A program made the translations under genes and the position numbers. This document shows positions 2,110 to 29,394 of a stretch of DNA of 64,000 nt, one piece after another; within the stretch, counting starts at the first letter, position 1, and every line of letters starts with the position of its first letter. The stretch is taken from contig JBHPGP010000003.1 of assembly GCA_042570305.1 (NCBI GenBank), positions 14,507 to 78,506 of the forward strand, in the 5' to 3' direction. The stretch is from Candidatus Omnitrophota bacterium. Lineage in GTDB: Bacteria; Omnitrophota; Gorgyraeia; Gygaellales; JAHJCI01. Under the pieces are notes generated by a model. It was not told where the DNA came from, made no database searches, and worked only from the letters and a program-made list of their open reading frames with translations.

Positions 2110-4350
2110 TTGTTCAAAAGAGAATCTATATTCGCCTGCGTTATTCTAATCATCATCTTGGGTTTTGCCGTTTACGGCAATTCCCTCAACGGAAAATTTG
2201 TCTGGGATGACGACCATCTAATCAGGGATAATTTATACATAAAGAGCTGGGCTCATATAAATAAGATTTTTACAAAAGATATAGGGGCAGCTACTGCAGT
2301 CCAATACAATTCATATCGCCCCTTACAGATGTTCACCTGCCTCATAGATTACTCTCTGTGGAAATTAGATGTAAGGGGCTATCACTTAAGCAATACCTTA
2401 TTCCATATCTTTGCGACATTGGCCTTATTCTGGTTCGTGACTATTCTCTTTGACAGCCTGCCCCTTGCGCTATTTACCAGCCTGTTTTTCTTGATCCATC
2501 CCGTACATACCGAAGCCGTTGCCTATATATCAGGACGCTCAGACCCGCTGGCTTTATTATTTATGCTGCTCTGCCTTATCTTCTATATAAAAGGCCTGCG
2601 CGAAAGGAGAGCGGGTTTTTACCTAGTTGCCTTATTAAGCTATGTATTGGCCCTGCTTTCAAGAGAGAATAGCCTGGTCTTACCTGCCTTATTGCTGCTC
2701 TATCATTATAGCTTCAAAAAGAAAATAAGGATTTGGCAGTTTCTTCCTATATTAAGCGCAGGGCTTATCTATATTGGATTACGAGTAACTGTTTTCAAAT
2801 CCATAATGCCGGATATTTCCATTTGTAATAGCGTATTTGAAAGAATCCCGGGATTCTTTGTTGCCATAACTAACTACATCAGGCTTCTTTTCCTTCCCCT
2901 TAACCTGCATATGGAATACGGACACAGGTCGTTTAGTTTTACGGACCCCGGAGCAGTGCTGGGGGTTATAATCCTGCTTTTGCTTGTTAGCTATGCGTTC
3001 AAGAAAAGGAATACGGACCAATTAGTATCCTTCTCCATATTATGGTTTTTTATAACACTCCTGCCCGTATCTAACCTTTATCCTCTTAATGCCTATATGG
3101 CTGAACACTGGCTGTATCTGCCTTCAATCGGGTTCTTTCTGCTTTTGGCAAGGGGGTTAAGTTATGCATATCGCAGGAAGGTGCTTAGAGGCTTAAGCAT
3201 AATCTTTACTATAGTCCTGTTGGTTTTATATTCTTACCTTACCTTCAGGCAGAATATTCACTGGAGGGAACCGCTGGTTTTTTATCAAAGGACCATGAAA
3301 TATGCCCCGGATAGCCCAAAGCTGTATAATAACCTCGGTAATGTCTGCTTTGCCCTGGGCAGAAAGGAAGAGGCGATAGGCTTTTACAGGAAGGCCATAG
3401 AGATAAAACCGGATAATGCAGGAGCATATAATAACCTCGGAGTTTTATACAAAGATATTAACCGTCCCCAAGAAGCGATAGACTTATACAGGAAAGCCTT
3501 AGAGATAAAGCCGGGATTTGGCCAGGCATATTATAATCTTGGCAACGCATATTACGCCATAAACGAATATGAAAAGGCGGTAGACTCGTACAAAAGAGCA
3601 ATTGCAATTCACCCGGACTTTGTAGATGCGTATAATAACCTCGGAGTCGTATACAGGGATATTAACATGGAAAAGGAAGCCGCATCAGCTTACAATAAGG
3701 CTATAGAGATTAATCCGTCCTACGTAGTTGCTTATAATAATCTCGGGAACCTTTACATGGCCGCAAACAAACACCAGGAGGCCATAGCCGCTTATGATAA
3801 GGCTATTCAGAGAGCCATAGAAATCGAACCTGATCTGGCAAAAACATACAGCAATCTTGGCCTGGCATACGAAGCGCTTAATAAAAATAAAGAGGCAATA
3901 GCCTCATATCAAAAATCTATAGAGCTTGATCCCGATAATGCAGGTTCTTTTTATAACCTGGGCAATGCATACAACGCGATTAACAATAAACAAGAAGCCA
4001 TTGCTTCATACCAGAAGGCAATATCAGCCGATTCGCAGTATGCCCAGGCTTATAATAACCTTGGGGTAACATACGTTAATATCGGTAAGCACTCAGAGGC
4101 TGTAGCCTTACTTGATAAGGCAATAGAAATTAATCCCGATTATGTCAAAGCCTATTTTAATAAAGCCCTTGCTTGCGAGAAGGCAGGCCGCCTGAAAGAG
4201 GGGATAGAAACCTACAGGAAATTTATTCAACTTGCCGGTACTGAATACGAGCCTTATATCGGGTATGCAAAGGCAAGAATAAGCCTGCTTGAGGGCAGAA
4301 GCGGCGAGGCGCCTGAACCAAATTTTGATGAATCAGGATTGGTAGATTAA
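2110..4350 (+). CDS. TMTC-like membrane glycosyltransferase (GT-C/PMT-like) fused to ~11 TPR repeats; paralog of 197..2071
   Basis: 746-aa ORF with a TTG start 8 nt after AGGAG (2097-2101). It has the same FVWDDD motif and TM core as the upstream gene and a longer TPR array. Its stop overlaps the stop of the convergent helicase gene (4347-4350). Confidence 0.75.
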   Translation: MFKRESIFACVILIIILGFAVYGNSLNGKFVWDDDHLIRDNLYIKSWAHINKIFTKDIGAATAVQYNSYRPLQMFTCLIDYSLWKLDVRGYHLSNTLFHIFATLALFWFVTILFDSLPLALFTSLFFLIHPVHTEAVAYISGRSDPLALLFMLLCLIFYIKGLRERRAGFYLVALLSYVLALLSRENSLVLPALLLLYHYSFKKKIRIWQFLPILSAGLIYIGLRVTVFKSIMPDISICNSVFERIPGFFVAITNYIRLLFLPLNLHMEYGHRSFSFTDPGAVLGVIILLLLVSYAFKKRNTDQLVSFSILWFFITLLPVSNLYPLNAYMAEHWLYLPSIGFFLLLARGLSYAYRRKVLRGLSIIFTIVLLVLYSYLTFRQNIHWREPLVFYQRTMKYAPDSPKLYNNLGNVCFALGRKEEAIGFYRKAIEIKPDNAGAYNNLGVLYKDINRPQEAIDLYRKALEIKPGFGQAYYNLGNAYYAINEYEKAVDSYKRAIAIHPDFVDAYNNLGVVYRDINMEKEAASAYNKAIEINPSYVVAYNNLGNLYMAANKHQEAIAAYDKAIQRAIEIEPDLAKTYSNLGLAYEALNKNKEAIASYQKSIELDPDNAGSFYNLGNAYNAINNKQEAIASYQKAISADSQYAQAYNNLGVTYVNIGKHSEAVALLDKAIEINPDYVKAYFNKALACEKAGRLKEGIETYRKFIQLAGTEYEPYIGYAKARISLLEGRSGEAPEPNFDESGLVD
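2428..2711 (+). repeat. 284-bp tract 100% identical to 533-816 (gene-conversion tract, copy 2)
   Basis: Same comparison as for copy 1. The flanking coding sequence is clearly diverged. Confidence 0.95.
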
Positions 4351-14453: not shown

Positions 14454-15752
14454 ATGACTATTCTTTATGATTTAGCATTTATTATTTTCGCAATAGGTTA
14501 TCTTCCCTATCTTCTCCTGAAAAGAAAGCTGCATAAGGGGCTGTTTCAGCGCTTGGGCTTTCTGCCGGAGAGCCTGAGGTTAGAGCAGCCTGTCTGGATA
14601 CACGCCGTAAGCGTTGGAGAGGCAAGGGTAGCCGGAATTCTGGTTGAACAATTACGTCGGGATTTTCCCGGTAAGAGATTTGCCTTCTCGACCATAACAG
14701 TTACCGGAAGTAAGATTGTACGCAGCTTCCTGCAGAAAGGGGATTTTTTGTTTTATCTGCCTTTTGATTTAAGCCTTATCGTCAGGAAGGTCATCTCGCG
14801 GCTTAAGCCCTGTGCCTGCATTATCGTGGAAACAGAAATCTGGCCGAATTTAATCTATCAACTGAAAAAAATGAATGTTCCTGTTATTCTGGTGAATGCG
14901 AGGATTTCAGACCGTTCATTTTCCGGCTACAGGACCATCAGGCCCCTGATTAAACCAATTTTAAACAAGGTGAATCTCTTCTGCGTTCAGGGTCAGAGTG
15001 ATGCACGCAGGCTATCAAGCTTGGGCGTAGATACAGATAGGCTGCGGGTTACCGGCAACATGAAATTCGATTTTTTACAGTGCTCTCAAGGCATTAAAGG
15101 GGATTATACGAACTACAAACTGAGACTGGGCTTGGAAACAAAAGAGAAATTATTTATTGCCGGCAGCACACACCCCGGAGAAGAGGAAGTTATCCTTAAT
15201 ACTTATAAGAAGCTATTAGATGAATTTCCCGGCTTGCGGCTCCTGCTTGCTCCGCGCCATCCTGAAAGGGCTGGGCAGGCAGCAGGCGAGGCAGTAAAAT
15301 TCGGATTCCAGGCAGTACTTATTTCTACTTTGACAAACAGTGCGCAGCAGGCTACGCAAGCGCAAGGGGACAGAAGCAGACAGCCTCCGGTATTTATCCT
15401 GGATACTATCGGAGAGCTCATGTCTTTTTATGCCATTGCGGATATTGTCTTTGTCGGCGGCAGCCTGGTCAAGAAGGGCGGGCATAATATACTGGAGCCG
15501 GCTTTATGCGCAAAGCCTATTCTTTTCGGACCTCATATGTTTAATTTCAGGGAGATGAGCGAATTATTCTTAGCCCAAAAGGCAGCCCGCATGGTGCGGG
15601 GGCAGGAAGAATTATTCATTGAAATGAAAAATTTATTGACCGATAGTTCTCAGCTGATGAATATTGGAAAACAGGCGAGGGAGCTGGTTTTAAAAAACCA
15701 GGGCGCAACCAGTCAGAATGCAGAGTTAATTAAAGGGTTAGTTGCCGTATGA
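14454..15752 (+). CDS. waaA: 3-deoxy-D-manno-octulosonic acid (Kdo) transferase
   Basis: 432 aa with an N-terminal anchor, the WIHAVSVGE motif and a GT30-like C-terminal half (GGSLVKKGGHNILEP). Confidence 0.9.
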   Translation: MTILYDLAFIIFAIGYLPYLLLKRKLHKGLFQRLGFLPESLRLEQPVWIHAVSVGEARVAGILVEQLRRDFPGKRFAFSTITVTGSKIVRSFLQKGDFLFYLPFDLSLIVRKVISRLKPCACIIVETEIWPNLIYQLKKMNVPVILVNARISDRSFSGYRTIRPLIKPILNKVNLFCVQGQSDARRLSSLGVDTDRLRVTGNMKFDFLQCSQGIKGDYTNYKLRLGLETKEKLFIAGSTHPGEEEVILNTYKKLLDEFPGLRLLLAPRHPERAGQAAGEAVKFGFQAVLISTLTNSAQQATQAQGDRSRQPPVFILDTIGELMSFYAIADIVFVGGSLVKKGGHNILEPALCAKPILFGPHMFNFREMSELFLAQKAARMVRGQEELFIEMKNLLTDSSQLMNIGKQARELVLKNQGATSQNAELIKGLVAV

Positions 15753-16816
15753 AAGAATATTTATATTCATTAGCCACGGATAAAAGCAGGGGTTTGCTTG
15801 CCGGAGTGCTGAAGTTCATTTTATTTATCCTTTCTCTGATTTACGGCCTGGCAATCAGGATGCTGTCCTTTTTTTACTGCCTTAAGCCTTACCGTTTTAA
15901 TTGCAGGGTTATCAGCGTAGGCAATATTACTTTGGGAGGCACAGGTAAGACATTGCTGGTAGAAATGCTGGCCGGGCTCCTGAAGAAAGACGGCCATAGG
16001 GTTGCGGTATTAAGCAGGGGTTATAAGAGGCCAGGGGTTGCACACCCGGTGTCCGGGGAGAGTTATGAGGCAATGGGTGATGAGCCGTATATGTTAAGCA
16101 GGAATTTGGGCGATATACCTGTAATTGTGGATAAGCACAGAGCCAGGGCAGCTAAAAAGGCAATCCGGGATTATCAGGTTGATACGGTTATTCTGGATGA
16201 CGGATTTCAGCAGTGGAAAATAAAAAAGGATTTGGAGATTGTTACCATTGACGCTACCAATCCATTCGGCAATCTAAGCATGTTGCCCAGAGGGGTCCTG
16301 CGCGAGCCATTATCTTCTTTAAGGCGTGCCGATATTTTTGTTTTAACCAAAACCAATTTCACGAAGGACAGTCAAAAAATAAAGAATACCCTGAACCGGA
16401 TAAGCCCCGGATGCCTGATTTTCCAAGGGGGTTATAAGCCAGAGGGTTTTTACAGGCTGGATGATTCAGCAGGCACGTTGCTGGGGCCCGAAGCATTTGC
16501 AGGCAGGCAGGCGGGGTTGCTTTGCGGGATTGCTGACCCGGAGTCATTTGCCGGCTTAATCAGGAATTTAGGCATCGGTATCGGTATATCCTTTAAGTTT
16601 CCCGACCACCACCAATATACCAAGGCAGAACTTGATCGGGTTGCCGGAGAATTAAAGAAGAGGGATATTAAATTGCTTATTACTACAGAGAAAGATTATG
16701 TGCGTCTTGAGGCTTGCGGCTTTAGGTTATCCGCAATCAGTTGTTATATTATGCGCATCAGGATGGAATTAACCGAGAATGAAGCATTCATTAAGCGAAT
16801 ACGCTCTCTATATTAG
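15749..16816 (+). CDS. lpxK: Tetraacyldisaccharide 4'-kinase
   Basis: 355 aa with the P-loop VGNITLGGTGKT, the GDEP motif and DDGFQ. ATGA overlap with waaA. Confidence 0.9.
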   Translation: MKEYLYSLATDKSRGLLAGVLKFILFILSLIYGLAIRMLSFFYCLKPYRFNCRVISVGNITLGGTGKTLLVEMLAGLLKKDGHRVAVLSRGYKRPGVAHPVSGESYEAMGDEPYMLSRNLGDIPVIVDKHRARAAKKAIRDYQVDTVILDDGFQQWKIKKDLEIVTIDATNPFGNLSMLPRGVLREPLSSLRRADIFVLTKTNFTKDSQKIKNTLNRISPGCLIFQGGYKPEGFYRLDDSAGTLLGPEAFAGRQAGLLCGIADPESFAGLIRNLGIGIGISFKFPDHHQYTKAELDRVAGELKKRDIKLLITTEKDYVRLEACGFRLSAISCYIMRIRMELTENEAFIKRIRSLY

Positions 16817-18725
16817 TTTCCGCCTGCTTTCCGCATTTTTTCAGGCATTGCCGCTCAGATTCTCTTTGTTTATCGGCAGGGCGCTGGGAATGCTTGGACT
16901 GTGGTTTGACCTCAAGCACAGGCGTATTGCTTATCGGAATCTCTGCATCGCCTTTTCCGCTCAATATTCCATTCCTGAGTTGAAGGCGATACTAAAAAGG
17001 AATTATCAGAACCTGGGTATGAATATGGTCGAAGCATTGAGAATACCGCTAATGGATGATGCCTATATAAAGCGCTATATCAGGATGACCGGTGAGGAGA
17101 ATTTAGAGAATGCGCTGAAGAATAAAAAGGGAGCAATTGTCCTGGGAGCACATTTCGGCAGCTGGGAGATTTGTTTTGCCATAGCCGGGATGTTAAAATA
17201 CCCCTTTTGCGTCTTTGCCGAAGAACAGTCAAAGAATCCCCTGCTGGATGAATTATTGAACCGTATGCGCCAGAGTAAAGGCGTAGAGGTTTTAAAGGTA
17301 AGCGGGAAGATACGTCAGGTAGTCGGCAGTTTGAAGAAGAATAAATTTGTGGGTATGGTTGCCGACCACGGGGCAAGGAAAGGGATATTTGTGGATTTCT
17401 TCGGCAGGAAAACGCGCGCCCCCAGCACGGCAGCGAGAATAGCCTTAAGGCTCGGTGTGCCGATCTTAATTGCGTATATTCGCAGGGTAAAAGGCCCGGA
17501 ACACGAGTTAGTGATTATGCCTCCCCTGGAGATTAAAAGAAGCGGTAATTTCAAACAGGATATGATCGCTACGGTGGAAGCGATTAACCGCTTGACCGAA
17601 GATTATATAACTAAATACCCAGAGCAGTATTTCTGGTTTTACAAACGTTTCAAATACAGCGCCCAGCGCAACATTCTCTTCCTGCATGACGGCAAGGCCG
17701 GGCATTTGCGTCAGGGAGAGACTTTAATCGGGCTGCTGGAGAATATTGCCGGGCAGAAGGGGATAGAGCTTAGAACAAAACTGCTGAAGATAGATTTTAA
17801 TAACAGGTACGCTTCTTTACTGCAATCCCTGGGCTTAACCCTGGCACACCGCAATACCTGCCAGGGGTGTTTATTTTGCTTGAGGAGGTTACTGGCGCCG
17901 GGCATATCCAGAGAGCTAGAGTCCTATTTTGCCGATATAGTGATTTCCTGCGGCTGGCGGACCGCAGCCGTCAATTGCGTTATCTCAAGCGACAGGCAGA
18001 GCAAGTCAATAGCGCTGATGCGTCCGGGGTTTTTAAGCGTAAAAAGGTTTGACCTGGTGGTGATGCCTTATCATGACAATCCACCGAGCAGGAATAACGT
18101 CGTGGTTACGCAAGGGGCACTGAATCTGGTTGACGAAAATTATCTGCAATCCTCTGCCAGGGATTTACAGTCTCAGGTTAGTCTCGGGCAGGGCCTGGTT
18201 TTAGGCTTGCTGCTCGGCGGAGATACAAAGAGTTTCCGGCTTTCCTGTGATTTATTAAAGCCGCTGATTGCGCAAATCAAGCTATTTTTAGAAAGGCATG
18301 ACGGCAAGATTCTGATTACTACCTCCCGCCGTACAAGCCAGGATGCGGAACGCCTGATCAGGGCTGAATTCGGCAGTTACGCACGCTGTAAATTATTGGT
18401 CATCGCTAATGAGAATAATCTGCCCTTTGCCGTAGGCGGAATCCTGGGCCTAAGCAGAATAGTGATTGTTTCTCCGGAAAGCATCTCGATGATTTCCGAG
18501 GCAGCCAGTTCCGGAAGGTATGTGGTGGTTTTCAAGCCCGGAATGAATATAGGCAGACGCCACAGCCGGTTCCTGCGGAATCTTGCGGATAAGAAATATA
18601 TTTATTTAACAGATAGTGCCCGGTTGTCCGAAACCTTAGAGGGGATTATTACAGATAAGCCAGGGGTTGTGAAATTAGAGGATAATCTTAAAGTAAAACA
18701 GGCCCTGGAGAAGCTATTAATCTGA
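16779..18725 (+). CDS. Fusion protein: lipid A late acyltransferase (LpxL/HtrB family) + ELM1/DUF1022 (COG3660)-like domain
   Basis: 648 aa. Residues 1-~295 match Lip_A_acyltrans (NLCIAF...PELKAI, HFGSWE, PEQYFWFYKRFK). Residues ~297-648 carry ELM1-family marks (LFLHDGKAGHLRQ, ILITTSRRT). It is a single uninterrupted ORF. Confidence 0.65.
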   Translation: MKHSLSEYALYISFRLLSAFFQALPLRFSLFIGRALGMLGLWFDLKHRRIAYRNLCIAFSAQYSIPELKAILKRNYQNLGMNMVEALRIPLMDDAYIKRYIRMTGEENLENALKNKKGAIVLGAHFGSWEICFAIAGMLKYPFCVFAEEQSKNPLLDELLNRMRQSKGVEVLKVSGKIRQVVGSLKKNKFVGMVADHGARKGIFVDFFGRKTRAPSTAARIALRLGVPILIAYIRRVKGPEHELVIMPPLEIKRSGNFKQDMIATVEAINRLTEDYITKYPEQYFWFYKRFKYSAQRNILFLHDGKAGHLRQGETLIGLLENIAGQKGIELRTKLLKIDFNNRYASLLQSLGLTLAHRNTCQGCLFCLRRLLAPGISRELESYFADIVISCGWRTAAVNCVISSDRQSKSIALMRPGFLSVKRFDLVVMPYHDNPPSRNNVVVTQGALNLVDENYLQSSARDLQSQVSLGQGLVLGLLLGGDTKSFRLSCDLLKPLIAQIKLFLERHDGKILITTSRRTSQDAERLIRAEFGSYARCKLLVIANENNLPFAVGGILGLSRIVIVSPESISMISEAASSGRYVVVFKPGMNIGRRHSRFLRNLADKKYIYLTDSARLSETLEGIITDKPGVVKLEDNLKVKQALEKLLI

Positions 18726-18791: not shown

Positions 18792-20888
18792 ATGAACATA
18801 TTGCAAATATTACCCGAGCTTAATGTCGGAGGAGTGGAAACAGGGGTGCGTGACTTCGCCGGCTTTCTGGTCAAGCAGGGGCACAAAAGCGTGGTGGTCT
18901 CCAATGGCGGGGCCTTGGTCGCAGACTTAGAACGGCAGGGCTCTAAACACTATAGCCTTCCCGTGCACAGGAAGTCGCCCTTTACCATTTTGCAGATGAT
19001 TCCCAAACTCAGCGAGATTATCCGTAAGGAAAATATCAATATTGTCCATGCCCGCTCGCGGGTTCCTGCCTGGATTGCCTTTTTCGCCTGTCGCCGCACG
19101 CGCAGGGTCTTCATTACTACCTGCCACGGTTATTACAGTGCCCATTTTGCCAGCAGGCCAATGGTCTGGGGCAAATTAGCCATCTGCCCCAGCCAGGTGA
19201 TTGCCAGCCACGTGAACAAGGATTTTGGCCTTCCCTTGGAACGCATACGCCTGGTTCCCCGCGGCGTAGATTTAGAAAGGTTCAGGTTTATTCCTCCTGA
19301 CAAAAAGGGTTCAGGCGTCTTTAACATCGGCATCATCGGACGGTTAAGCCCGATAAAAGGCCACAGCCATTTCCTGCGTTCGATAGTGCGCGTAATCAGG
19401 CAGGTTAACTCTCTGCCGGTAAAAATCTGGATAGTAGGAGGGGCCTCTGCCTCACAGCAAAATTATAAGCACGATTTGGAAGTTCTGGTCAAAAGGCTGG
19501 GATTGGGTTACTGCACCGAGTTTCTGGGAACACAGCAGGATATACCCGGAATTCTATCTGACCTTAATCTCCTGGTTGTTCCATCGGCTCGCCACGAGGC
19601 TTTCGGAAGAGTAATTATTGAGGCCCAGGCAGCAGGTGTACCAGTAATCGCAACCAGGGTGGGAGGTATAGTGGATATCATCGATGATAATCTGACCGGC
19701 ATTCTGGTTGCTCCCGGTGACGTGGAAGGGTTATCCCGTGCGATAATCCGGATAATGAACGATAAATCCTTAAGCAGTTATTTAGCCCAGAATGCCTATC
19801 AGAAGCTAAAGCAGAATTTCACCTTAGAGATAATGAGCCGCAAGACTTTGGAAGTTTATCAAGAGGCGCTTGTGCAGTTCAGGGTTCTGGTGATTAAATT
19901 GAGTGCCCTGGGTGACATAATTCTGACTATTCCCAGTTTACGCGCAATCAGAAAGAAATTTCCCAAAGCAAATTATAAAATCAGCCTGCTGGTTAACGTT
20001 CCCTATCAGGAGGCCTTGTTTCATTGTCCTTATGTCGATGAGCTAATTGTATCAGACCTCAATGATAAGGATAAGGGCATCAGGAGCATCTTAAATTTTA
20101 GCCGGGAGTTAAAAAAAGGTCATTTTGATTTTGTAATTGATCTGCAGAACAACCATAAAAGCCACCTCTTAAGCTTCTTGAGCCACATACCCGTACGTTA
20201 CGGCTACCGGAGGAAATTCGGCCTTTTGCTTAACCACTCGCTTCCTGTAGGGAAAATGGACCAGGGGCCTATCGAGCATCAGTTCAGACTATTGAAGATG
20301 CTGGATATAGAACTCAATAGCCCCCGTCTTGAGCTTTGGCCGGGCAGGAAAGACGAGGCGTATATTGAGAATTTCCTGAATCAGCAATGGATAAGCCCAA
20401 GGCAAGTTTTGGTTGGAATAAACCTCAGCGCGAGTAAAAAATGGCAGACCAAGGCCTGGCCGATAGAGCACATTGCCAGCCTTTGCGAAAGCCTCAGCTT
20501 AAAAGACATACGGGTAGTGTTTACCGGAGATGCCGATGACTCCCTGCGCGCCAGGGAGATTCTGGACCTGGTAAAAGGCGCAAAACCGGTTGTGGCCTGC
20601 GGCAAGACCAGCATTAATCAATTAATCTGTTTGATTAAGAGGTGCCAGGTCTTTATTAGTTCGGATTCCGCGCCCCTGCATATTGCTGCTGCGGTGGGCA
20701 CACCCTATGTCGCCCTGTTCGGACCAACCGACCCGGGGAGTCATCTTGCCTCAGGATACAAAGGCTCAACTATCCATAAGGACCTTGCCTGCAGCCCGTG
20801 TTATAAATCCAGATGCAGAACCACGGAGTGTATGCGCGCGATAAAGCCGCAAGAGGTATTGGAAGCGATGCAGGAATTATTGAAATGA
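18792..20888 (+). CDS. Fusion protein: GT4 glycosyltransferase + GT9 (heptosyltransferase-like) domain
   Basis: 698 aa. The N-terminal half is GT4 (NVGGVETGV..., EAFGRVIIEAQAAGVPVIATRVGG). From ~residue 363 it is GT9 (VLVIKLSALGDIILTIPSLRAI..., SSDSAPLHIAAAVGTPYVALFGPTDP). Confidence 0.75.
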   Translation: MNILQILPELNVGGVETGVRDFAGFLVKQGHKSVVVSNGGALVADLERQGSKHYSLPVHRKSPFTILQMIPKLSEIIRKENINIVHARSRVPAWIAFFACRRTRRVFITTCHGYYSAHFASRPMVWGKLAICPSQVIASHVNKDFGLPLERIRLVPRGVDLERFRFIPPDKKGSGVFNIGIIGRLSPIKGHSHFLRSIVRVIRQVNSLPVKIWIVGGASASQQNYKHDLEVLVKRLGLGYCTEFLGTQQDIPGILSDLNLLVVPSARHEAFGRVIIEAQAAGVPVIATRVGGIVDIIDDNLTGILVAPGDVEGLSRAIIRIMNDKSLSSYLAQNAYQKLKQNFTLEIMSRKTLEVYQEALVQFRVLVIKLSALGDIILTIPSLRAIRKKFPKANYKISLLVNVPYQEALFHCPYVDELIVSDLNDKDKGIRSILNFSRELKKGHFDFVIDLQNNHKSHLLSFLSHIPVRYGYRRKFGLLLNHSLPVGKMDQGPIEHQFRLLKMLDIELNSPRLELWPGRKDEAYIENFLNQQWISPRQVLVGINLSASKKWQTKAWPIEHIASLCESLSLKDIRVVFTGDADDSLRAREILDLVKGAKPVVACGKTSINQLICLIKRCQVFISSDSAPLHIAAAVGTPYVALFGPTDPGSHLASGYKGSTIHKDLACSPCYKSRCRTTECMRAIKPQEVLEAMQELLK

Positions 20889-21961
20889 ATATTTTAATCC
20901 TCACCAATCATCTGAGCATCGGAGGCATTACCCGCTATGTACTGACCCTGAGTTACGCCCTAAAGAAACAAGGCAACAGGGTTTTTGTCGGTTCCCTGCC
21001 AGGAGAGGGCGAAAGGTTTTTAGAGGAAAACGATATACCCTGGTTGAGTCTACCGCTTAAGACAAAGTCGATCCTCAGCCCCCGCCTGCTTCCCGCTTAC
21101 CTGATTCTTAAAAAATTTATAAAGAAGGAGAATATCCATCTTATTCATGCCCAGACCCGCATTACTCAGTTTCTTGCCTTTTTATTAAGCAGGGATTTGG
21201 GTATTCCCTATGTCTCTACCTTCCACGGATTCTATCGCCCGCATTTAGTGCGCAAATTATTCCCATTCGGGGGAAATTTAACCATTGCAATCAGTCAGGC
21301 AGTGGCAGGGCATTTGATTAAAGATTTTAAGCTGAATAGAGAGAACCTGCGGGTGATTTATAACTCCGTCGGACCGGATGCGGAATATTCAGCGGATAAA
21401 GATTACAGTTATCTTAAGGCAAGCCCCACGCTGGGCATTGTCGCTAGGCTTTCAAAGGAAAAGGGGCATTTAATACTTTTCTCTGCCTTTAAGCAGTTGG
21501 CCAAGGAGTATCCTGAAGCGCGGCTGCTGGTGGTTGGTACAGGAAAAACAGAAGAAGAGCTAAAAGATTGGGTAGCTAAAGAAAATCTTGCTGAGCGGAT
21601 TGTCTTCCTGGGCAACATCGCGCAGCTGAGGTCGTTTTTTGCTATTCTTGACCTTATGGTTTTGCCTTCTATCCAGGAGGGCTTGGGGTATTCTGTTTTG
21701 GAAGCGCAGGCAGCCGGCGTGCCGGTTGTTGCCAGCTCAGTCGGCGGGATAACTGAGGTCATTCAAGACAGAGAAACCGGGATTCTGGTTGAGCCGGGCG
21801 TTCCTGCTGAATTGTATCAGGCAATCAAGCTGCTCTTAGGAGATGCCGGGATGCGCCGGAGGATAGTGGAAAATGCAAGAAAACAAATTCAGGAGAGGTT
21901 TTCGCTGGAGAAAATGGTTGCGCAGGTTGAGGCTGTTTATAAAGAATTAGTAAAGCGATGA
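20885..21961 (+). CDS. GT4 family glycosyltransferase (LPS core)
   Basis: ATG 20885 forms an ATGA overlap with the upstream stop. The sequence starts MNILILTNHLSIGGITRYV... and contains the EGLGYSVLEAQAAGVPVVASSVGG E-x7-E region. Confidence 0.8.
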   Translation: MNILILTNHLSIGGITRYVLTLSYALKKQGNRVFVGSLPGEGERFLEENDIPWLSLPLKTKSILSPRLLPAYLILKKFIKKENIHLIHAQTRITQFLAFLLSRDLGIPYVSTFHGFYRPHLVRKLFPFGGNLTIAISQAVAGHLIKDFKLNRENLRVIYNSVGPDAEYSADKDYSYLKASPTLGIVARLSKEKGHLILFSAFKQLAKEYPEARLLVVGTGKTEEELKDWVAKENLAERIVFLGNIAQLRSFFAILDLMVLPSIQEGLGYSVLEAQAAGVPVVASSVGGITEVIQDRETGILVEPGVPAELYQAIKLLLGDAGMRRRIVENARKQIQERFSLEKMVAQVEAVYKELVKR

Positions 21962-22977
21962 AGAAGATACTCGTATTTGCTACGAACTGGCTAGGCGATA
22001 CGCTCTTCCTGTTTCCTTTGCTCGACGGGTTAAGGCATAATTTCAGGCAATCAAGCCTGGCTGTAGTGTCGGTTCCCCGCGTAAAGGGTATTTTTGCGAA
22101 TAACCGCAATGTCGAAGAAATCATTGTTTATGACGAGAAGGGAAGGCACAGGGGCTTATTCTCTCGGATTGCCCTGATTTCTCAATTACGGAAAAAGGGG
22201 TTTGATACGGCCTTTATGATTAAGCCGTCTTTAAGCCGGGCACTCATACTTAAGCTTGCCGGGATAAAGGAAATCATTGGCTTTGCCAATCCCAAGAGCG
22301 GCTGGTTGCTTACAAAGCAGATTCCGCAGCCGGATAAGGCGCTGCATAAGATAGATTCTTTTTTAAGCATACTCCAACACCTTAAATTTAAGGTCGAACA
22401 GCGCAGATATGAATTCCTGCCTTACCAAGAAGAGAAGACTCATATTGAAAATCTACTTAGAAAAAAAGGCTTTAATCCGGACCTGCCCCTGTTAGTAATA
22501 AATCCTGGAGCAAACTGGTTTCCCAAGCGCTGGCCGCCGGAGAATTTTGCCGAGTTGGTTAAAAGGCTGAAATCAGGCTTCAGGCTGAATGTGGCAATTA
22601 CCGGAGCTGAGAAAGACCGGGAGTTATCCGGGAAAATTATCGAGCAGTCAGGTGCGGATATCCTTGATTTTACCGGGCAGACAACATTCGGGCAATTGGG
22701 CGCCTTGATGCAGAGGGCGGACATAGTTATTTCTGCTGATTCAGGTCCGATGCATATTGCGGCTGCAGTGGGTAAAAAGGTAATCGCGCTCTTTGGCCCT
22801 ACCTCTGCAAAGCTTACAGGCCCCTATCCTCCGGAAGAACATATTATAATTCAGGGTAAGCCGGAGGATTGCAGGGTTCCCTGTTATGATTCAAGCTGCC
22901 GCGACTATCGCTGCATGAAGTCAATTACGGTTGATGAAGTTTTCCAGAAGGTAACACAGTTATTGAAAGTAAAATGA
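21958..22977 (+). CDS. GT9 family glycosyltransferase (ADP-heptose:LPS heptosyltransferase-like)
   Basis: 339 aa with ILVFATNWLGDTLF and SADSGPMHIAAAVGKKVIALFGPT motifs. ATGA overlap with the upstream gene. Confidence 0.8.
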   Translation: MKKILVFATNWLGDTLFLFPLLDGLRHNFRQSSLAVVSVPRVKGIFANNRNVEEIIVYDEKGRHRGLFSRIALISQLRKKGFDTAFMIKPSLSRALILKLAGIKEIIGFANPKSGWLLTKQIPQPDKALHKIDSFLSILQHLKFKVEQRRYEFLPYQEEKTHIENLLRKKGFNPDLPLLVINPGANWFPKRWPPENFAELVKRLKSGFRLNVAITGAEKDRELSGKIIEQSGADILDFTGQTTFGQLGALMQRADIVISADSGPMHIAAAVGKKVIALFGPTSAKLTGPYPPEEHIIIQGKPEDCRVPCYDSSCRDYRCMKSITVDEVFQKVTQLLKVK

Positions 22978-23408
22978 ACCTGTTCCTTTTTTCGCTCAGC
23001 GTAGATTTTGCTCTTTCGTACAATATCCAGATTTCAGGTCTTTTGCCTCGAGCACGAAACTTTTTGCCGTCTGCTTCGGTTTACTCCTCACTCCCGTGCG
23101 ACTATCGCAGACCAGGACTCTCCGTTCGTCGTAATTCCTCGCAGACTTCTGCCAAAAAGTTTCTAATTGTGCTCTTCGTCAAAATCCCTAAAATCTTACA
23201 AAGTTGGCTGAAGCGGCTACGAGGTTTGCCCTTCGCTTACGCTCAGGGTCATGATTTCGAGCGGGACGTGTGGAGCCCGAGCGGGCAGGGTTTGCTGTGA
23301 TGGACCTTTCTCCAAGAGCGAGGACGAACGTCGAGTGAAGTTTTTCCTCGCTGGGGAAAAACGAACGTTCCCGCGAGAAAGCAAACCAAAGTAAGCCGCT
23401 AAGGATTA
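22978..23408 (+). other. 431-bp non-coding spacer with nested helices inside the LPS operon (candidate structured RNA / cis-regulatory leader / decayed element)
   Basis: There is no credible ORF. A composite 23-bp helix spans 23050-23074 with 23141-23174. A three-stem module at 23289-23387 pairs GGTTTGCT/AGCAAACC, AGCGAGGA/TCCTCGCT and GGGAA/TTCCC. Strand is assumed from the flanking genes. Confidence 0.35.
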
Positions 23409-24380
23409 ATGACCATAAACAAGGTGTTGTTTTTTACGCTGAGTAATTTCGGCGACGTGATACTCTCGCTGCCGGTGCTGGACGTTTTGCGCTCAGAATA
23501 CCCCAAGGCCTTAATCACCGTGATGGTCGGGCCGCGCGCGTCAGAGGTTTTTCAAGATAACCCGTATATAAACGAGCTGATTATTTACGATAAATACGTT
23601 TCATTAAAAGAAAAAATCAGGTTGTTTTTCAGGCTGAAAAAAGAACGCTTTGATTTGGTAATCGATTTACGCAATAGCCTCTACGGAGCACTGCTGCCTG
23701 CGAGGTTCAAGACATCGCCGTTCCTGCACCCGCCCGCCAACATCCGGCACATGAAACAGCGAAACCTTTACAGGCTGAGGGCGGCGTTAAAACAGAACGG
23801 ATTATGGGCGACGGTGAAGGAGAGGGTGCTTTATACCAGCCCTGAAGATAAAAAATATCTTAACGCGCTCCTTCAGGATAACGGCATTAATCCCAAAGAT
23901 AGAATAATCATTGTCAGTCCTGCGACAGGCGGCAGGACCAGGAGGTGGGCAAGGGAGAATTTTATCGAGCTTTGCAAGAAACTGGCTGCGGATTATCCGG
24001 TAGTCCTGGTCGGCAGAAAACAGGATAAGCCATTGAGCGCATACATCCAGAGCAAGGTTTCCGGCAGGGTTTTTGATTTTTCCGGATTAACCAGCCTTGC
24101 GCAACTTGTTTTTCTTTTAGAGAAGTCTTCGCTGGTAGTTGTCTGTGATACGGGTATTCTGCAGTTAGCCAGTTACCTGGATATACCCATTGTGGCATTG
24201 TTCGGCCCCAGTGACGAACACAGGTACGGGCCCTGGTCCGGCAGATTTAAGTTAGTTTCCGCAAAGACTGCCTGCCGGCCGTGTACTGAACCCGACTGCC
24301 GGTTTAAAACCAATGAATGTATGCATAAAATAAGCGTAGAACAGGTATTGGATTCCATTGACGAGTTAATGAAATTATGA
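23409..24380 (+). CDS. GT9 family glycosyltransferase (heptosyltransferase-like)
   Basis: 323 aa with VLFFTLSNFGDVILSLPVL and CDTGILQLASYLDIPIVALFGPSD motifs. Confidence 0.8.
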   Translation: MTINKVLFFTLSNFGDVILSLPVLDVLRSEYPKALITVMVGPRASEVFQDNPYINELIIYDKYVSLKEKIRLFFRLKKERFDLVIDLRNSLYGALLPARFKTSPFLHPPANIRHMKQRNLYRLRAALKQNGLWATVKERVLYTSPEDKKYLNALLQDNGINPKDRIIIVSPATGGRTRRWARENFIELCKKLAADYPVVLVGRKQDKPLSAYIQSKVSGRVFDFSGLTSLAQLVFLLEKSSLVVVCDTGILQLASYLDIPIVALFGPSDEHRYGPWSGRFKLVSAKTACRPCTEPDCRFKTNECMHKISVEQVLDSIDELMKL

Positions 24381-24397
24381 TAATATAATAACTCAAA

Positions 24398-25333
24398 ATG
24401 ATTGATTTCAATAAGGTTAAAACCTATTCATCCAAAAGGGGGACATTCAAGGTGAAGAAGCGGGATTTTGCCCGTGCCCCCAGAAAAAGGGACAGTTTCC
24501 TTGGTTTTTATCAGTCTCTGCCCTCGATACTGAAGGCCAAGGATTTAGATAATACGGTTGGCGCAATCATTCAGGCAGCCAAAAAGAAAAAGCCGGTGAT
24601 ATTTATGTGCGGGGCGCATGTAATCAAATGCGGTCTCAGTCCGGTGGTAATTGAACTGATTAACAAGGGAATGCTAACCTGTCTTAGCTTGAACGGCGCA
24701 GGGATAATCCACGATTTTGAGATTGCTTATCAGGGCACAACCTCTGAGGACGTAGCCCGTTCATTAAGCCGCGGCAGATTCGGCATGAACCGCAGGACAG
24801 CCCAGTTTCTTAATCAGGCAGTATCCGCCGGGGCAGTTCAGGGTTTTGGGTTGGGCGAGAGCGTCGGGGAGGCAATGATTAAGCAGCGACTCCCTTTTGC
24901 CAATTTGAGCATTATCTGTAAGGCAATCAAGTCAGGCATTCCGGTTACTGTTCACGTTGCCGTAGGCACAGACATTATCCACCAGCACCCCAGTTTCGAT
25001 GCCGGGTTGACTGCCGATGCCAGCCTGCGGGATTTCCGTGTTCTGGTAGAGCAGGTTTCGCGCCTAGGCGACGGGGGAGTGGTGCTTAATTTCGGTTCTG
25101 CAGTGGTTTTGCCGGAGGTTTTTCTCAAGGCATTGAATCTTGCCAGGAACCTCAGGTTTAGAGTGCGTAATTTTACCACGGCAAATTTCGATATGATTTA
25201 TCATTATCGCCCGGCAGAGAATATTGTGCGCAGGCCCGTTATGCCGGGAGGTAAAGGGTATTACTTTGTCGGGCATCACGAGATTATGCTGCCGCTTTTA
25301 GCGCAGGCAGTCATTGAAAAGTTGCGCAGATGA
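24398..25333 (+). CDS. Deoxyhypusine-synthase-like (DHS-like NAD-binding fold) protein of unknown function
   Basis: 311 aa. By-eye alignment to DHS gives these correspondences:
- IFMCGAHVIKCGLSPVVIELINKGMLTCLSLNGAGIIHDFEIA to [43 protein letters not shown]
- KSGIPVTVHVAVGTD to KNHIPVFSPALTDG
- a C-terminal LPLL motif
The region around the DHS catalytic Lys is not conserved. Confidence 0.45.
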   Translation: MIDFNKVKTYSSKRGTFKVKKRDFARAPRKRDSFLGFYQSLPSILKAKDLDNTVGAIIQAAKKKKPVIFMCGAHVIKCGLSPVVIELINKGMLTCLSLNGAGIIHDFEIAYQGTTSEDVARSLSRGRFGMNRRTAQFLNQAVSAGAVQGFGLGESVGEAMIKQRLPFANLSIICKAIKSGIPVTVHVAVGTDIIHQHPSFDAGLTADASLRDFRVLVEQVSRLGDGGVVLNFGSAVVLPEVFLKALNLARNLRFRVRNFTTANFDMIYHYRPAENIVRRPVMPGGKGYYFVGHHEIMLPLLAQAVIEKLRR

Positions 25334-26356: not shown

Positions 26357-27091
26357 ATGGAAGCAATCGGAGTAATACCGGCCAGATACAGTTCCACGCG
26401 CTTTCAGGGCAAGATCCTGGCGGATATCTGCGGCAGGCCGATGATTCAGCATGTCTGGGAACAGGCGAAAGAGGCAAGGCTTCTTGACGATGTAATCATC
26501 GCCTGCGACGAGGAAGAGGTTTTTAAGGTAGCCAGCGATTTCGGAGCTAATTGCGTGATGACTTCTAAGGGCCACCTTTCCGGCAGCGACAGGATTACAG
26601 AGGTAATCAGCCCTTTAGAGGTAAAGGTAGTGGTGAATATTCAGGCTGACGAGCCGCTGATTAAGCCGATCATGATTGATAGCCTCGCTGAGACGCTGAT
26701 CAGGGATGATTCTGTTTATATGGCAACTCTGATCAAACAGATTGAGGATGCAGAGGAGGTAAATAACCCGAATGCGGTTAAGGTAGTGGTTGATAAAAAT
26801 AATTTCGCCCTTTATTTTTCGCGCGCAGCCATTCCTTTCCCAGCAGATAAAAAGTTTAACCCGGTTTATTACAAGCATATCGGCCTTTATGCCTACACCA
26901 AGGATTTTCTCTTCAGGTATAAAAATATTCTTCCTTCGTCTCTTGAGCGCGCGGAAAAGCTGGAACAGTTACGCGTGCTGGAAGAGGGCTTACGCATTAA
27001 GGTCATTGAGACCAAGTTTGATACCATCGGCGTAGATACGCCTGCAGATTTAGAGAAGGTAACGCAGATTTTATCCGGGGAGCAGAAATGA
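26357..27091 (+). CDS. kdsB: 3-deoxy-manno-octulosonate cytidylyltransferase (CMP-Kdo synthetase)
   Basis: 244 aa with IPARYSSTRFQGK, NIQADEPL and the EQLRVLE motif. Confidence 0.92.
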   Translation: MEAIGVIPARYSSTRFQGKILADICGRPMIQHVWEQAKEARLLDDVIIACDEEEVFKVASDFGANCVMTSKGHLSGSDRITEVISPLEVKVVVNIQADEPLIKPIMIDSLAETLIRDDSVYMATLIKQIEDAEEVNNPNAVKVVVDKNNFALYFSRAAIPFPADKKFNPVYYKHIGLYAYTKDFLFRYKNILPSSLERAEKLEQLRVLEEGLRIKVIETKFDTIGVDTPADLEKVTQILSGEQK

Positions 27092-27906
27092 GCAAGGCAG
27101 TCAAGCTGGGAGGCGTCAGGATAGGCAAGGGTAAACCCCTGGTTTTGATTGCCGGGCCCTGCGTCATAGAATCAGAGGCGCTTTGTTTATCCGCGGCAGG
27201 AGCGATAAAGGGCATTTGCGCAAAACTTCATACCCCCTTTATTTTTAAATCCAGTTATGATAAGGCAAACCGTACTTCAGTAGATTCCTTTCGCGGACCG
27301 GGGCTGGAAGCCGGGCTTAAAATTCTGGCGAAGGTTAAAGAAAAGCTGGATATTCCCGTGATTTCCGACGTGCATTGCAAAGAGGAGTTAAAAAAAGCAG
27401 CAAGGGTGCTGGATGCGATTCAGATTCCTGCTTTCTTATGCCGACAGACAGACTTGCTGCTTGCTGCCGCGAAAACAGGCAAGACCGTAAATATTAAAAA
27501 GGGCCAATTTCTGGCGCCCTGGGATGCGCTGAGTATAATCAAGAAGATAGAATCAGCCGGCAATAAGAATATTCTGATTACCGAGCGCGGGGTAAGCTTC
27601 GGTTATAATAACCTGGTTTCGGATTTCCGCGCCCTTGCGATTATGCGGGATTTTGGTTATCCGGTGATTTATGATGCCACGCACAGTGTGCAATTACCTT
27701 CGAGTCTGGGTAAGGCTTCAGGAGGGCAGCGCCAATTTGTTTCCGGTCTTGCCCGTGCCGCAGTTGCCTTTGGCTGCGACGGCCTGTTTATCGAGGTTCA
27801 TCCCAGGCCGGAAAAGGCACCGTGCGACGGACCGAATATGATTGATTTAGTGCAGCTGGAAAAATTACTCAGAGAAGTCAGGGCAATAGAGAAGGCACTG
27901 AAATGA
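27088..27906 (+). CDS. kdsA: 2-dehydro-3-deoxyphosphooctonate aldolase (Kdo-8-P synthase)
   Basis: 272 aa with LIAGPCVIES, FKSSYDKANR, QIPAFLCRQTDL and DATHSVQ motifs. Confidence 0.92.
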   Translation: MSKAVKLGGVRIGKGKPLVLIAGPCVIESEALCLSAAGAIKGICAKLHTPFIFKSSYDKANRTSVDSFRGPGLEAGLKILAKVKEKLDIPVISDVHCKEELKKAARVLDAIQIPAFLCRQTDLLLAAAKTGKTVNIKKGQFLAPWDALSIIKKIESAGNKNILITERGVSFGYNNLVSDFRALAIMRDFGYPVIYDATHSVQLPSSLGKASGGQRQFVSGLARAAVAFGCDGLFIEVHPRPEKAPCDGPNMIDLVQLEKLLREVRAIEKALK

Positions 27907-28865
27907 ATTCAATAAAGCGCGCCATAGAGGTTCTGGAGATCGAAGCCGATGCCATCAAGGGCTTAAGGACCAGGATAGACAATAATTTTAAGGCAGCGAT
28001 TGAATTATTGAAGTCTACCAAGGGCAGGGTAGTAGTCAGCGGCATGGGCAAAACAGGGATTATTGCCCAGAAGTTTTCGGCTACCCTTGCCTCTACGGGA
28101 ACGCCGAGTCTATTCCTGCATTCTGCCGAGGCAGTCCACGGTGACCTGGGGCGCGTAACCCTCCAAGACGTGGTAGTGGTTATCTCCAAGAGCGGAGAAT
28201 CAGAGGAGATAAAGAAACTGCTGCCGATTTTAAAGAAGATCGGCAGCCCTGTGATTGCTTTAACCGGGAATATCAAATCATCCCTCGCGCGCTATAGCGA
28301 TGTGGTTTTGAATGTGGCGGTAAAAAAAGAAGCCTGCCCTTTGAACCTCGCGCCTACAGCCTCAACTACGGCAATGCTGGCAATGTGCGATGCGCTTTCC
28401 GTCTGCCTTTTGGAACTAAAGGGTTTTAAGCAGAAGGATTTTGCCTTTTTCCATCCCGGCGGTTCCTTGGGCAAGAGCTTGCTGTTGAAGGTAGAGGATA
28501 TTATGCGCACGGGAAACGCCAATCCGGTAGTTAGCGAGGAGGCGACCGTTTCAAGCGTACTCTTGAAGATTACCAGGGCACGCGCCGGCAGCGCAACGGT
28601 AGTGGATAGGCGGGGAAGGTTGAAAGGCATATTTACTGACGGCGACCTGCGCAGACATCTGAGGGCAGGCCAGGATTTAAGCAGGCAGAAGATAAAAAGC
28701 GTGATGACCGCCAAGCCCACCGCAATCAGCAAAGACCGTCTGGCTGCCGAGGCAATGCACATATTGGAATCCAGAAAGATTGACGAGATGCCGGTTGTGG
28801 ATAGGCAAGGGAAAGTAGTAGGCCTTTTGGATGTGCAGGATTTATTAAGGGCAGGGGTAGTCTAA
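27903..28865 (+). CDS. kdsD: Arabinose-5-phosphate isomerase (SIS + 2x CBS)
   Basis: 320 aa with SIS motifs GMGKTGIIAQK and ISKSGESEE, plus a C-terminal CBS pair. Confidence 0.9.
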   Translation: MNSIKRAIEVLEIEADAIKGLRTRIDNNFKAAIELLKSTKGRVVVSGMGKTGIIAQKFSATLASTGTPSLFLHSAEAVHGDLGRVTLQDVVVVISKSGESEEIKKLLPILKKIGSPVIALTGNIKSSLARYSDVVLNVAVKKEACPLNLAPTASTTAMLAMCDALSVCLLELKGFKQKDFAFFHPGGSLGKSLLLKVEDIMRTGNANPVVSEEATVSSVLLKITRARAGSATVVDRRGRLKGIFTDGDLRRHLRAGQDLSRQKIKSVMTAKPTAISKDRLAAEAMHILESRKIDEMPVVDRQGKVVGLLDVQDLLRAGVV

Positions 28866-28866
28866 G

Positions 28867-29394
28867 GTGGATGAATCTTTAAGAATCAAAGCGGAAAAAA
28901 TCAAATTATTGTTATTGGACGTTGACGGAGTGCTCACGGACGGAAGGATAATTTACGATTCCAAGGGCCGGGATTCCAAGTTCTTTAATGTGCACGACGG
29001 ATTAGGGGTCTACCTTCTTAAAAGGGCCGCTATATCCACGGTCTTGATTACTGCAAAGGCATCGCGTTCAATCAAGCCGCGCGCCCGCGACATGCGGGTT
29101 GCCGAGGTTTTTGCCGATGTTTCTCCGAAGAGCTCTGTTTTCCAGAAGATTTTAAAGAAATACCGCGTCAGCCCGGAAGAGGTTTGCTTTGTCGCCGACG
29201 ACCTGGTTGATTTATGCCTGATGGACAAGGTGGGCCTTGCGGTTGCCGTGTTTAATGCTTGTCCGGAGATAAAGAACCTTGCCCATTACATTACCCAGAG
29301 AGAAGGGGGAAGGGGAGCAGTCAGAGAGGTCGCGGAGATAATCCTGAAATCCCAGGGCAAGTGGCAGGAAATAATCGGTTCATACCGGCACTAA
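28867..29394 (+). CDS. kdsC: Kdo-8-phosphate phosphatase (HAD family)
   Basis: 175 aa with a GTG start, the HAD motif LLLLDVDGVLTDG and GDDLVD-like motif IV (ADDLVDL). Confidence 0.88.
   Translation: MDESLRIKAEKIKLLLLDVDGVLTDGRIIYDSKGRDSKFFNVHDGLGVYLLKRAAISTVLITAKASRSIKPRARDMRVAEVFADVSPKSSVFQKILKKYRVSPEEVCFVADDLVDLCLMDKVGLAVAVFNACPEIKNLAHYITQREGGRGAVREVAEIILKSQGKWQEIIGSYRH

Follow-up and report, generated by a model that had tools for sequence, protein, structure and literature searches.

In a 64,000-nucleotide stretch of DNA from an uncultured Candidatus Omnitrophota bacterium (GenBank assembly GCA_042570305.1, contig JBHPGP010000003.1, positions 14,507 to 78,506 of the forward strand; hereafter the window), one open reading frame (ORF) joins a late lipid A acyltransferase of the LpxL/LpxM family to a glycosyltransferase (GT) domain of the GT-B fold that belongs to the ELM1/GtrOC1/KdoT family. 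Both domains are present with their catalytic motifs conserved, the fusion and its synteny recur among relatives, and the C-terminal half is homologous to KdoT of Acinetobacter baumannii. We consider it fairly probable (about 0.6) that the protein is a bifunctional, inner-membrane-associated enzyme, which combines LpxL/LpxM-type acylation with KdoT-like transfer of 3-deoxy-D-manno-octulosonic acid (Kdo) on Kdo2-lipid IVA.

16779..18725, + strand: fusion ORF with an ATG start, 648 aa (ORF listing), LpxL/LpxM-family acyltransferase plus ELM1/GtrOC1/KdoT-family GT-B domain
16779..17657, + strand (aa 1-293): N-terminal half, late lipid A acyltransferase domain (PF03279, LpxM profile match, Foldseek)
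17658..18722, + strand (aa 294-648): C-terminal half, ELM1/GtrOC1/KdoT-family GT-B glycosyltransferase domain (PF06258, hhalign to KdoT)

A single reading frame with two domains

PF03279 (Lip_A_acyltrans) matches aa 20-292 of the protein with 185.7 bits (E 1.5e-54) against a Pfam cutoff of 22.3, and PF06258 (Mito_fiss_Elm1) matches aa 317-610 with 154.1 bits (E 5.9e-45) against a cutoff of 27. An earlier note on this DNA had proposed the ORF, the two domain assignments and their union in one frame, and the ORF listing and Pfam bear it out in all details; the ELM1 homology of the C-terminal part, which the note had left open to refutation by hidden Markov model searches, holds as well. Of the two signatures that it cited, LFLHDGKAGHLRQ occupies aa 300-312 and ILITTSRRT aa 511-519. 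The genomic setting it described agrees with the ORF coordinates and with Pfam (PF04413, PF02606): waaA lies upstream of lpxK and the fusion, and lpxK overlaps the fusion ORF by 38 nt.

The ATG start is backed by full-length homologues that span 100% of the query and by the invariant residues P25, G33 and G37, which precede the next methionine, M38. AlphaFold2 places both domains of the whole protein confidently (predicted local distance difference test (pLDDT), 89.3; predicted template modeling score (pTM), 0.86). A search of 5.8 billion proteins found an identical NCBI protein that bears the name 'ELM1/GtrOC1 family putative glycosyltransferase [Candidatus Omnitrophota bacterium]'.

Genuineness and distribution of the fusion

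The same search returned more than 120 further protein clusters, 40-69% identical and about 647 aa long, all with both Pfam domains and drawn from independent data sources (NCBI, JGI, ENA and Logan). When the ELM1 half alone served as HMMER query, an exhaustive scan (E <= 1e-3) gave 2,562 clusters at 50% identity; 86 of the 150 best representatives are at least 600 aa long, and among those listed the ELM1 domain begins at about aa 256-383, mostly near aa 295. At least 566 genomes, taken as one genome per GTDB species, encode a relative, and the genome counts given below refer to the best 80 of these, all of which are Ca. Omnitrophota. LpxL and ELM1 share one stop-to-stop ORF in 71 of the 80. 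Among the remaining nine, the contig ends before the junction in three, five carry a different fusion (LpxK-ELM1) and one has a frameshift. Across 34 aligned fusions of 40-69% identity, on which motif invariance was also judged, the junction (...YKxWKY-SxxR-NILILxDGKxGH...) is free of gaps and nearly linkerless. The fusion is genuine and widely conserved in this uncultured phylum.

The earlier note had raised the concern that a frameshift artificially joins two genes. That the single ORF is an artefact of assembly or sequencing might be entertained because the sequence comes from a metagenome-assembled genome (MAG), and because one relative does carry the two halves in different frames. However, the same continuous ORF appears in 71 of 80 independent species-level genomes and in the clusters from several data sources, the junction lacks gaps, and the AlphaFold2 model (pTM 0.86) is confident for both domains. 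The cluster survey, the junction alignment and the ORF check of the 80 genomes thus refute the artefact, whose probability we regard as negligible.

The frameshifted relative, from an Omnitrophota MAG (L036:5151-7041), is split inside the LpxL half by a sequencing error or as a pseudogene: LpxL profile positions 1-235 lie in the first ORF, and positions 245-294 plus ELM1 lie in the next. It shows how an artefact or pseudogene version would look. Separately, several third-party-annotation MAGs titled "uncultured Planctomycetales/Planctomycetia bacterium" bear the Omnitrophota-type fusion and synteny, and their labels may be imprecise (L005, L031, L049, L053, L056, L058, L059, L065, L067, L071, L072 and L081).

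Homology of the C-terminal half to KdoT

Several members of this family have been studied in A. baumannii. GtrOC1, GtrOC14, GtrOC19 and GtrOC22 of the outer-core (OC) locus contain Mito_fiss_Elm1 and were predicted to be glycosyltransferases (Kenyon et al. 2014, PMC4172580; PMC10327509). Deletion of A1S_2903, which encodes an ELM1-like protein, truncates the lipooligosaccharide to Kdo2-lipid A (VanOtterloo et al. 2024, PMC10936431), and 2903 and the GT4 enzyme LpsB add KdoIII and GlcNAcA (N-acetylglucosaminuronic acid), also in Escherichia coli WBB06 (PMC10936431). A1S_2903/GtrOC1 was then purified and renamed KdoT (VanOtterloo, Voss & Trent, JBC December 2025, PMC12856342). In vitro, KdoT transfers KdoIII to Kdo2-lipid IVA in a CMP-Kdo (cytidine monophosphate-Kdo)-dependent reaction; it favors tetra-acylated Kdo2-lipid IVA over Kdo2-lipid A bearing six acyl chains and is inactive on lipid IVA, with LpxL and LpxM having served to acylate Kdo2-lipid IVA in that study (PMC12856342). 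Other Acinetobacter species and Rickettsia have homologues that complemented a kdoT mutant (PMC12856342). The conserved SRRT motif is needed, and within it R180, whose mutation impairs KdoT and which is modeled in contact with the Kdo carboxylate, is critical, whereas single alanine mutants of D8, H13, H109 and D110 stayed active (PMC12856342). The earlier note's description of the family as uncharacterised in bacteria and biochemically unestablished is therefore outdated (PMC12856342; earlier PMC4172580 and PMC10936431). Its proposal that the ELM1-like domain acts in lipid A or inner-core maturation is supported by the homology to KdoT and by retention of SRRT, including R518, in the fusion.

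For comparison, we took the A. baumannii gtrOC1/kdoT sequence from a PLSDB record (L086) that is filed as a "plasmid." There, kdoT directly follows ilvE and is succeeded by gtrOC2, pda1 and a GT2 gene, and the published numbering fits the sequence (D8, H13, H109, D110 and S178-R179-R180-T181). The profile of the Omnitrophota ELM1 domains matches KdoT in hhalign with 99.7% probability (E 4.2e-27, 26% identity over 247 columns), and blastp of the domain gives 30% identity (E 5e-17). A homologue search with KdoT itself was filled by Acinetobacter sequences. In a column comparison of 25 Omnitrophota-type domains with KdoT, the residues invariant throughout are D304 (D8), G308 (G12), Q312 (Q16), H432 (H109), G480/G481 (G144/G145), S516 (S178) and R518 (R180), and S568, M571, E574 and A575 of an S-x-x-M-x-x-E-A motif. 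The corresponding features are as follows.

17688..17714, + strand: DGKxGHxxQ motif, D304...H309...Q312, equivalent to KdoT D8...H13...Q16; invariant in the fusions
18072..18077, + strand: H432-D433, equivalent to KdoT H109-D110, candidate acceptor-side cleft residues (KdoT alignment, PMC12856342)
18324..18335, + strand: SRRT motif, S516-R517-R518-T519, R518 equivalent to KdoT R180; invariant in the 34 fusions
18471..18503, + strand: SPESISMISEA in the C-terminal Rossmann domain, aligned with KdoT TEDSVSMVFEA
17790..17894, + strand (aa 338-372): variable insertion of about 30 aa, Cys-rich in the window protein, that opens a gap in the hhalign comparison with KdoT

Within SPESISMISEA, S565, E567, S568, S570, M571 and E574 are invariant in the fusions, and S568, M571, E574 and A575 are common to KdoT. 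H309 is likewise invariant in the Omnitrophota fusions, whereas its equivalent H13 was reported not to be conserved outside Acinetobacter (PMC12856342). The likeness to KdoT thus comprises PF06258 membership, the GT-B fold, a gene context in the inner core of lipopolysaccharide (LPS), and the DGKxGH, HD, GG, SRRT and S-x-x-M-x-x-E-A motifs. The two differ in architecture: KdoT is a standalone protein of 296 aa encoded beside ilvE in the outer-core locus, whereas the Omnitrophota domain is the C-terminal half of a fusion.

The insertion holds a cysteine cluster, C361-x-G-C364-x-x-C367, in a region of pLDDT 66-76, and could be a metal-binding or membrane-contact loop. The CxxCxxC pattern occurs in 46 of 76 LpxL-type fusions, is variable in the rest and is lacking in KdoT. 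We therefore rejected the insertion as an essential conserved metal site.

Modeled alone, the domain has a GT-B fold with two Rossmann-like domains (pLDDT 92.7, pTM 0.90). Its Foldseek neighbors are generic GT-B proteins, namely MurG, TreT, MshA, WecB, HepE, UDP-N-acetylglucosamine (UDP-GlcNAc) 2-epimerases and a polysialyltransferase, at template modeling (TM) scores of 0.45-0.6 and 10-15% identity. A profile search with the 34 fusions gave no sequence-level match of this half to any solved structure. In hhalign, WaaA, two GT9 and two GT4 enzymes, E. coli LpxB and LpxK all gave at most 10% probability against the ELM1 domain; for WaaA (GT30), of which the window has a separate bona fide gene at 14454..15752, the value was 2.1%.

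The Pfam family takes its name from plant ELM1, a mitochondrial fission factor and outer-mitochondrial-membrane adaptor of eukaryotes with no known enzymatic role (PMC10936431), and the name is misleading for bacterial PF06258 proteins. Could the domain nevertheless be an inert scaffold or regulatory module, in the way that plant ELM1 recruits dynamin-related proteins? The plant precedent is one reason to consider it; another is that the four KdoT residues noted above tolerate single alanine substitution, so that there is no classical catalytic base whose presence could be checked (PMC12856342). Purified KdoT is an enzyme, however (PMC12856342), and donor-side SRRT, S-x-x-M-x-x-E-A and the acceptor-side D/H residues stay unchanged in all 34 fusions despite their divergence. 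We regard an inert domain as very improbable.

Two observations concern the database records of kdoT. Four A. baumannii "plasmids" in PLSDB (CP040041.1, NZ_CP077849.1, NZ_CP064203.1 and NZ_CP104448.1; 0.56-4.1 Mb) contain the ilvE-gtrOC1 outer-core locus, which is chromosomal, and so are chromosomal sequence. The annotation of CP040041.1 still calls kdoT/gtrOC1 a "nucleoside-diphosphate sugar epimerase."

The acyltransferase half

The profile of the 34 fusions matches A. baumannii LpxM (5KN7, E 3.9e-28) and mycobacterial PatA, and Foldseek on the model agrees, with 5KNK/5KN7 (E about 1e-15) and PatA as matches and thus an LpxM/PatA fold. The catalytic dyad is in place.

17151..17168, + strand: HX4E catalytic dyad, H125-F-G-S-W-E130; H125 and E130 invariant in the 34 fusions

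HFGSWE aligns with HFGTWE of LpxM, the motif of which 5KNK is the E127A catalytic mutant. None of the 17 NCBIfam matches reached its equivalog cutoff (best PRK08419, 157 versus 248 bits), which places the half among the late lipid A acyltransferases at the family level only. The model has predicted helices spanning aa 5-23 and aa 26-43, with a maximal Kyte-Doolittle value of only 1.36. In comparison with LpxL/LpxM proteins such as 5KN7, PF03279, the HX4E dyad and the fold are shared, and the gene here follows lpxK and waaA; the window protein differs in bearing a 355-aa glycosyltransferase domain at its C terminus and in falling below all equivalog cutoffs, so that the acyl chain and position are not assignable.

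Gene neighborhood

The fusion lies in a string of genes on one strand, in the order waaA, lpxK, LpxL-ELM1, GT4-GT9, GT4, GT9, GT9 and an ORF of 311 aa, continuing with a PfkB kinase, kdsB, kdsA, kdsD, a kdsC-like gene and an lptB-like gene.

14454..15752, + strand: waaA, Kdo transferase of GT30 (PF04413, E 3.3e-61; NF004388 371.7 bits, below its cutoff of 438)
15749..16816, + strand: lpxK, tetraacyldisaccharide 4'-kinase (PF02606, E 5.5e-82; TIGR00682 191 bits versus 91.95)
18792..20888, + strand: GT4-GT9 fusion glycosyltransferase, 698 aa (Pfam GT4 and GT9 domains)
20813..21961, + strand: GT4 glycosyltransferase (Pfam; syntenic in relatives)
21958..22977, + strand: GT9 heptosyltransferase-like protein (Pfam; syntenic in relatives)
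23409..24380, + strand: GT9 heptosyltransferase-like protein (Pfam)
24398..25333, + strand: 311-aa ORF without a significant Pfam match
26357-27091, + strand: kdsB (Pfam CTP_transf_3)
27088-27906, + strand: kdsA (Pfam DAHP_synth_1)
27903-28865, + strand: kdsD (Pfam SIS+CBS)
28867-29394, + strand: kdsC-like HAD phosphatase (Pfam HAD)

The four kds genes (26357..29394) supply CMP-Kdo and lie within the same string. LpxK has a strongly hydrophobic N-terminal helix (Kyte-Doolittle 2.36), and the C-terminal half of GT4-GT9 passes TIGR02195 (heptosyltransferase II) with 139.9 bits against a cutoff of 134.6. Across the 80 genomes gene order is kept, as it is in a relative of 41% identity whose contig measures 1.19 Mb, and PfkB-kdsB-kdsA stand in this order in L001. 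The survey of gene neighborhoods that the earlier note had called for gave a uniform answer on the upstream side: lpxK lies directly 5' of every complete fusion in the 80 genomes. GT4-GT9 lies directly 3' of the ELM1 ORF in 73, and in the other seven the contig ends first.

Multi-domain enzymes of the LPS core, including the WaaF-like GT4-GT9, also join consecutive or co-substrate enzymes and are conserved across a lineage. The present fusion differs from them in that an acyltransferase, acting on the lipid A moiety, is joined to a glycosyltransferase, acting on the core moiety.

Two details of the string may be mentioned. As listed, the GT4 gene begins inside GT4-GT9, with an overlap of 76 nt (20813-20888); its L001 orthologue is shorter by 15 aa, which makes an internal ATG (MNILILTNHL...) the probable true start. 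Between the two GT9 genes (22974-23409) lie an ORF of 108 aa without a Pfam match and then a gap of about 100 nt, the sole break in this otherwise tightly packed string.

Other partners of the ELM1 domain

The upstream partner of the ELM1 domain is not always LpxL. In five genomes, including the complete chromosome CP070837.1, Pfam confirms LpxK and ELM1 in one ORF of about 700-740 aa, with the following LpxK-ELM1 loci.

L076:4918-7071 (CP070837.1): LpxK-ELM1
L058:4919-7147: LpxK-ELM1
L066:1813-3981: LpxK-ELM1
L069:2831-4972: LpxK-ELM1
L077:4912-7083: LpxK-ELM1
L088:3438-5543: LpxK-ELM1

Neither hmmsearch with the LpxL profile nor blastp found LpxL near these ORFs within loci of 2.5-13 kb. The five ELM1 domains form one exclusive clade, and this, together with the overlapping layout of lpxK and lpxL-ELM1, suggests that LpxK-ELM1 arose once, when the LpxL segment was lost in frame. 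A third type, GT9-ELM1, is represented by a protein of 736 aa (P0246, L087:4116-6326) on one JGI metagenome contig, with GT4-GT9 directly following. GT4-GT9 follows ELM1 in all three types of fusion wherever the contig reaches that far; among three standalone ELM1 loci, it is directly 3' in one, which is in a "Deltaproteobacteria" MAG. With LpxL, LpxK and GT9 as partners, the upstream element therefore varies, and the downstream GT4-GT9 is constant in the fusion loci.

Standalone genes also occur. In GCA_030698625.1 (L004:6058-9074), an ELM1 gene stands alone and shares 4 nt with the end of the gene for an MsbA-like ABC exporter. The exporter (ABC_membrane+ABC_tran) is 648 aa long, and O-antigen genes (Wzm/Wzt and Wzy_C) lie alongside. 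Another standalone ELM1 gene of this MAG (L002) has an uninformative context. The LpxK and GT9 fusions and the exporter overlap speak for the bifunctional enzyme that we favor.

These partners bear on a different enzymatic role, in which the ELM1 domain would substitute for LpxB, the GT19 lipid A disaccharide synthase, and the fusions would join consecutive steps of the Raetz pathway. The LpxB step directly precedes LpxK, and an LpxK-ELM1 fusion exists. Searches with E. coli proteins found no lpxB in the window or in a total of about 1 Mb of Omnitrophota loci, but this is uninformative because lpxA and lpxD are absent from the same loci, their genes lying elsewhere. Several findings argue in the other direction: hhalign against E. 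coli LpxB gives 0.3% probability; no LpxB structure is among the top 50 Foldseek matches; KdoT is inactive on lipid IVA, acting only on Kdo2-lipid IVA (PMC12856342); at least two standalone ELM1 paralogues occur in one Omnitrophota MAG, unlike the single-copy, essential LpxB; and a core heptosyltransferase is among the fusion partners of the domain. An LpxB-like role thus seems highly unlikely.

Proposed function

For the enzyme that we favor, acting in both acylation and Kdo transfer, the parts would have the following roles. WaaA, encoded two genes upstream, would make Kdo2-lipid IVA. The N-terminal half would add a secondary acyl chain to the Kdo-lipid A precursor at the cytoplasmic face. 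The C-terminal half would most likely, by its homology to KdoT, transfer a further (third) Kdo from CMP-Kdo to Kdo2-lipid IVA. The GT4-GT9 enzyme, encoded directly downstream, would then extend the inner core. We infer the donor, the acceptor, the sequence in which the reactions run and any channeling between the halves. In E. coli, LpxL canonically acylates Kdo2-lipid IVA, on which KdoT acts as well, and the two halves would share this substrate class.

Fusion could also hold a soluble GT-B domain, which by itself lacks an anchor, at the membrane, close to its lipid substrate. KdoT of A. baumannii begins at its first β-strand and is not anchored in the membrane, whereas LpxK has its strongly hydrophobic helix and the LpxL half two moderately hydrophobic ones; tethering is therefore a plausible selective advantage. 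On the downstream side, the GT4 enzyme GnaT extends the product of KdoT, and here a gene with a GT4 domain lies directly downstream, a likeness at the level of family. The constant GT4-GT9 may in this way echo the reaction order of KdoT and then GnaT, whose gene, lpsB (A1S_0430), is named apart from the OC-locus genes of A. baumannii.

Several points weigh against this assignment. First, A. baumannii has further ELM1 paralogues, GtrOC14, GtrOC19 and GtrOC22, in outer-core loci, with unknown donors (PMC4172580, PMC10327509). Second, identity to KdoT is just 26-30%; given such paralogues, membership in the family does not by itself fix CMP-Kdo as the donor. Third, Foldseek and the profile comparisons carry no donor-specific signal, only generic GT-B folds. 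Fourth, the Omnitrophota domain has the insertion of about 30 aa and a C terminus longer than that of KdoT. Fifth, with regard to the other half, its N-terminal helices are just moderately hydrophobic, and, as it lies under every NCBIfam cutoff, LpxL-like and LpxM-like specificity are not assignable. Sixth, the GT4 domain is no more than a candidate counterpart of GnaT/LpsB. Finally, we know of no LPS structure for any Omnitrophota.

The first three of these points, together with the size of the ELM1 family (the 2,562 clusters above), lend some weight to an alternative with the same architecture and site of action, in which the domain adds another sugar, such as a hexose, a uronic acid or a heptose, as the first or a branching residue of the inner core. 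Oppositely, the sole biochemically characterized member uses CMP-Kdo, and a distant Rickettsia homologue complements ΔkdoT (PMC12856342), which suggests that Kdo activity is old in the family. Further, SRRT is invariant here, and its R180 equivalent in KdoT is modeled in contact with the Kdo carboxylate (PMC12856342). The gene string also contains a complete CMP-Kdo supply pathway, although WaaA needs CMP-Kdo too. On balance, we consider a different sugar possible, at clearly less than even odds.

Kdo transfer alongside acylation remains our preferred assignment, and a more speculative extension of it can be sketched. Omnitrophota may use a "split Kdo pathway," with WaaA and a KdoT-like enzyme as in Acinetobacter, that is hard-wired to the Raetz pathway; or another donor may be used and the core be non-canonical. 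Tentatively, the domain would be anchored by the membrane-bound lipid A enzyme that happens to lie before it in the operon (LpxL, LpxK in one clade, or GT9). The product might then pass to GT4-GT9, and branching and late acylation might be coupled or channeled on one polypeptide; we offer each of these steps as a conjecture that we would not bet on.

Novelty and implications

In the literature searched, we found no description of the LpxL-KdoT-like architecture, of its LpxK and GT9 variants or of the recurring GT4-GT9 partner, none of the ELM1/KdoT family in Omnitrophota, and nothing relevant on Omnitrophota together with lpxB or lipid A. What is described here is a new domain arrangement of known enzymes, not a new function. 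KdoT having already been published, the fusion is independent genomic corroboration rather than first evidence, and no new field is opened because the function of the family is known; the result is useful, yet no surprise for a specialist.

Its value is fourfold. The range of the KdoT (ELM1-like) family widens from Acinetobacter and Rickettsia to an uncultured phylum related to the Planctomycetes-Verrucomicrobia-Chlamydiae group. Three independent Rosetta-stone fusions (LpxL, LpxK and GT9) corroborate that the domain acts on Kdo-lipid A intermediates, on the cytoplasmic side of the inner membrane. The protein is a natural bifunctional construct for asking whether Kdo branching and late acylation are coupled. 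And bacterial annotations as "mitochondrial fission ELM1" are better read as LPS inner-core glycosyltransferases.

Other features of the window

Outside the LPS gene string, two adjoining genes (197-4350) encode large proteins of tetratricopeptide repeats (624 and 746 aa), the first with weak N-terminal similarity to PMT_2, a membrane glycosyltransferase of the GT-C type. At 32951-34321, a PilZ domain stands at the N terminus of a type II/IV secretion ATPase (T2SSE), which suggests control of a pilus or secretion motor by cyclic di-GMP.

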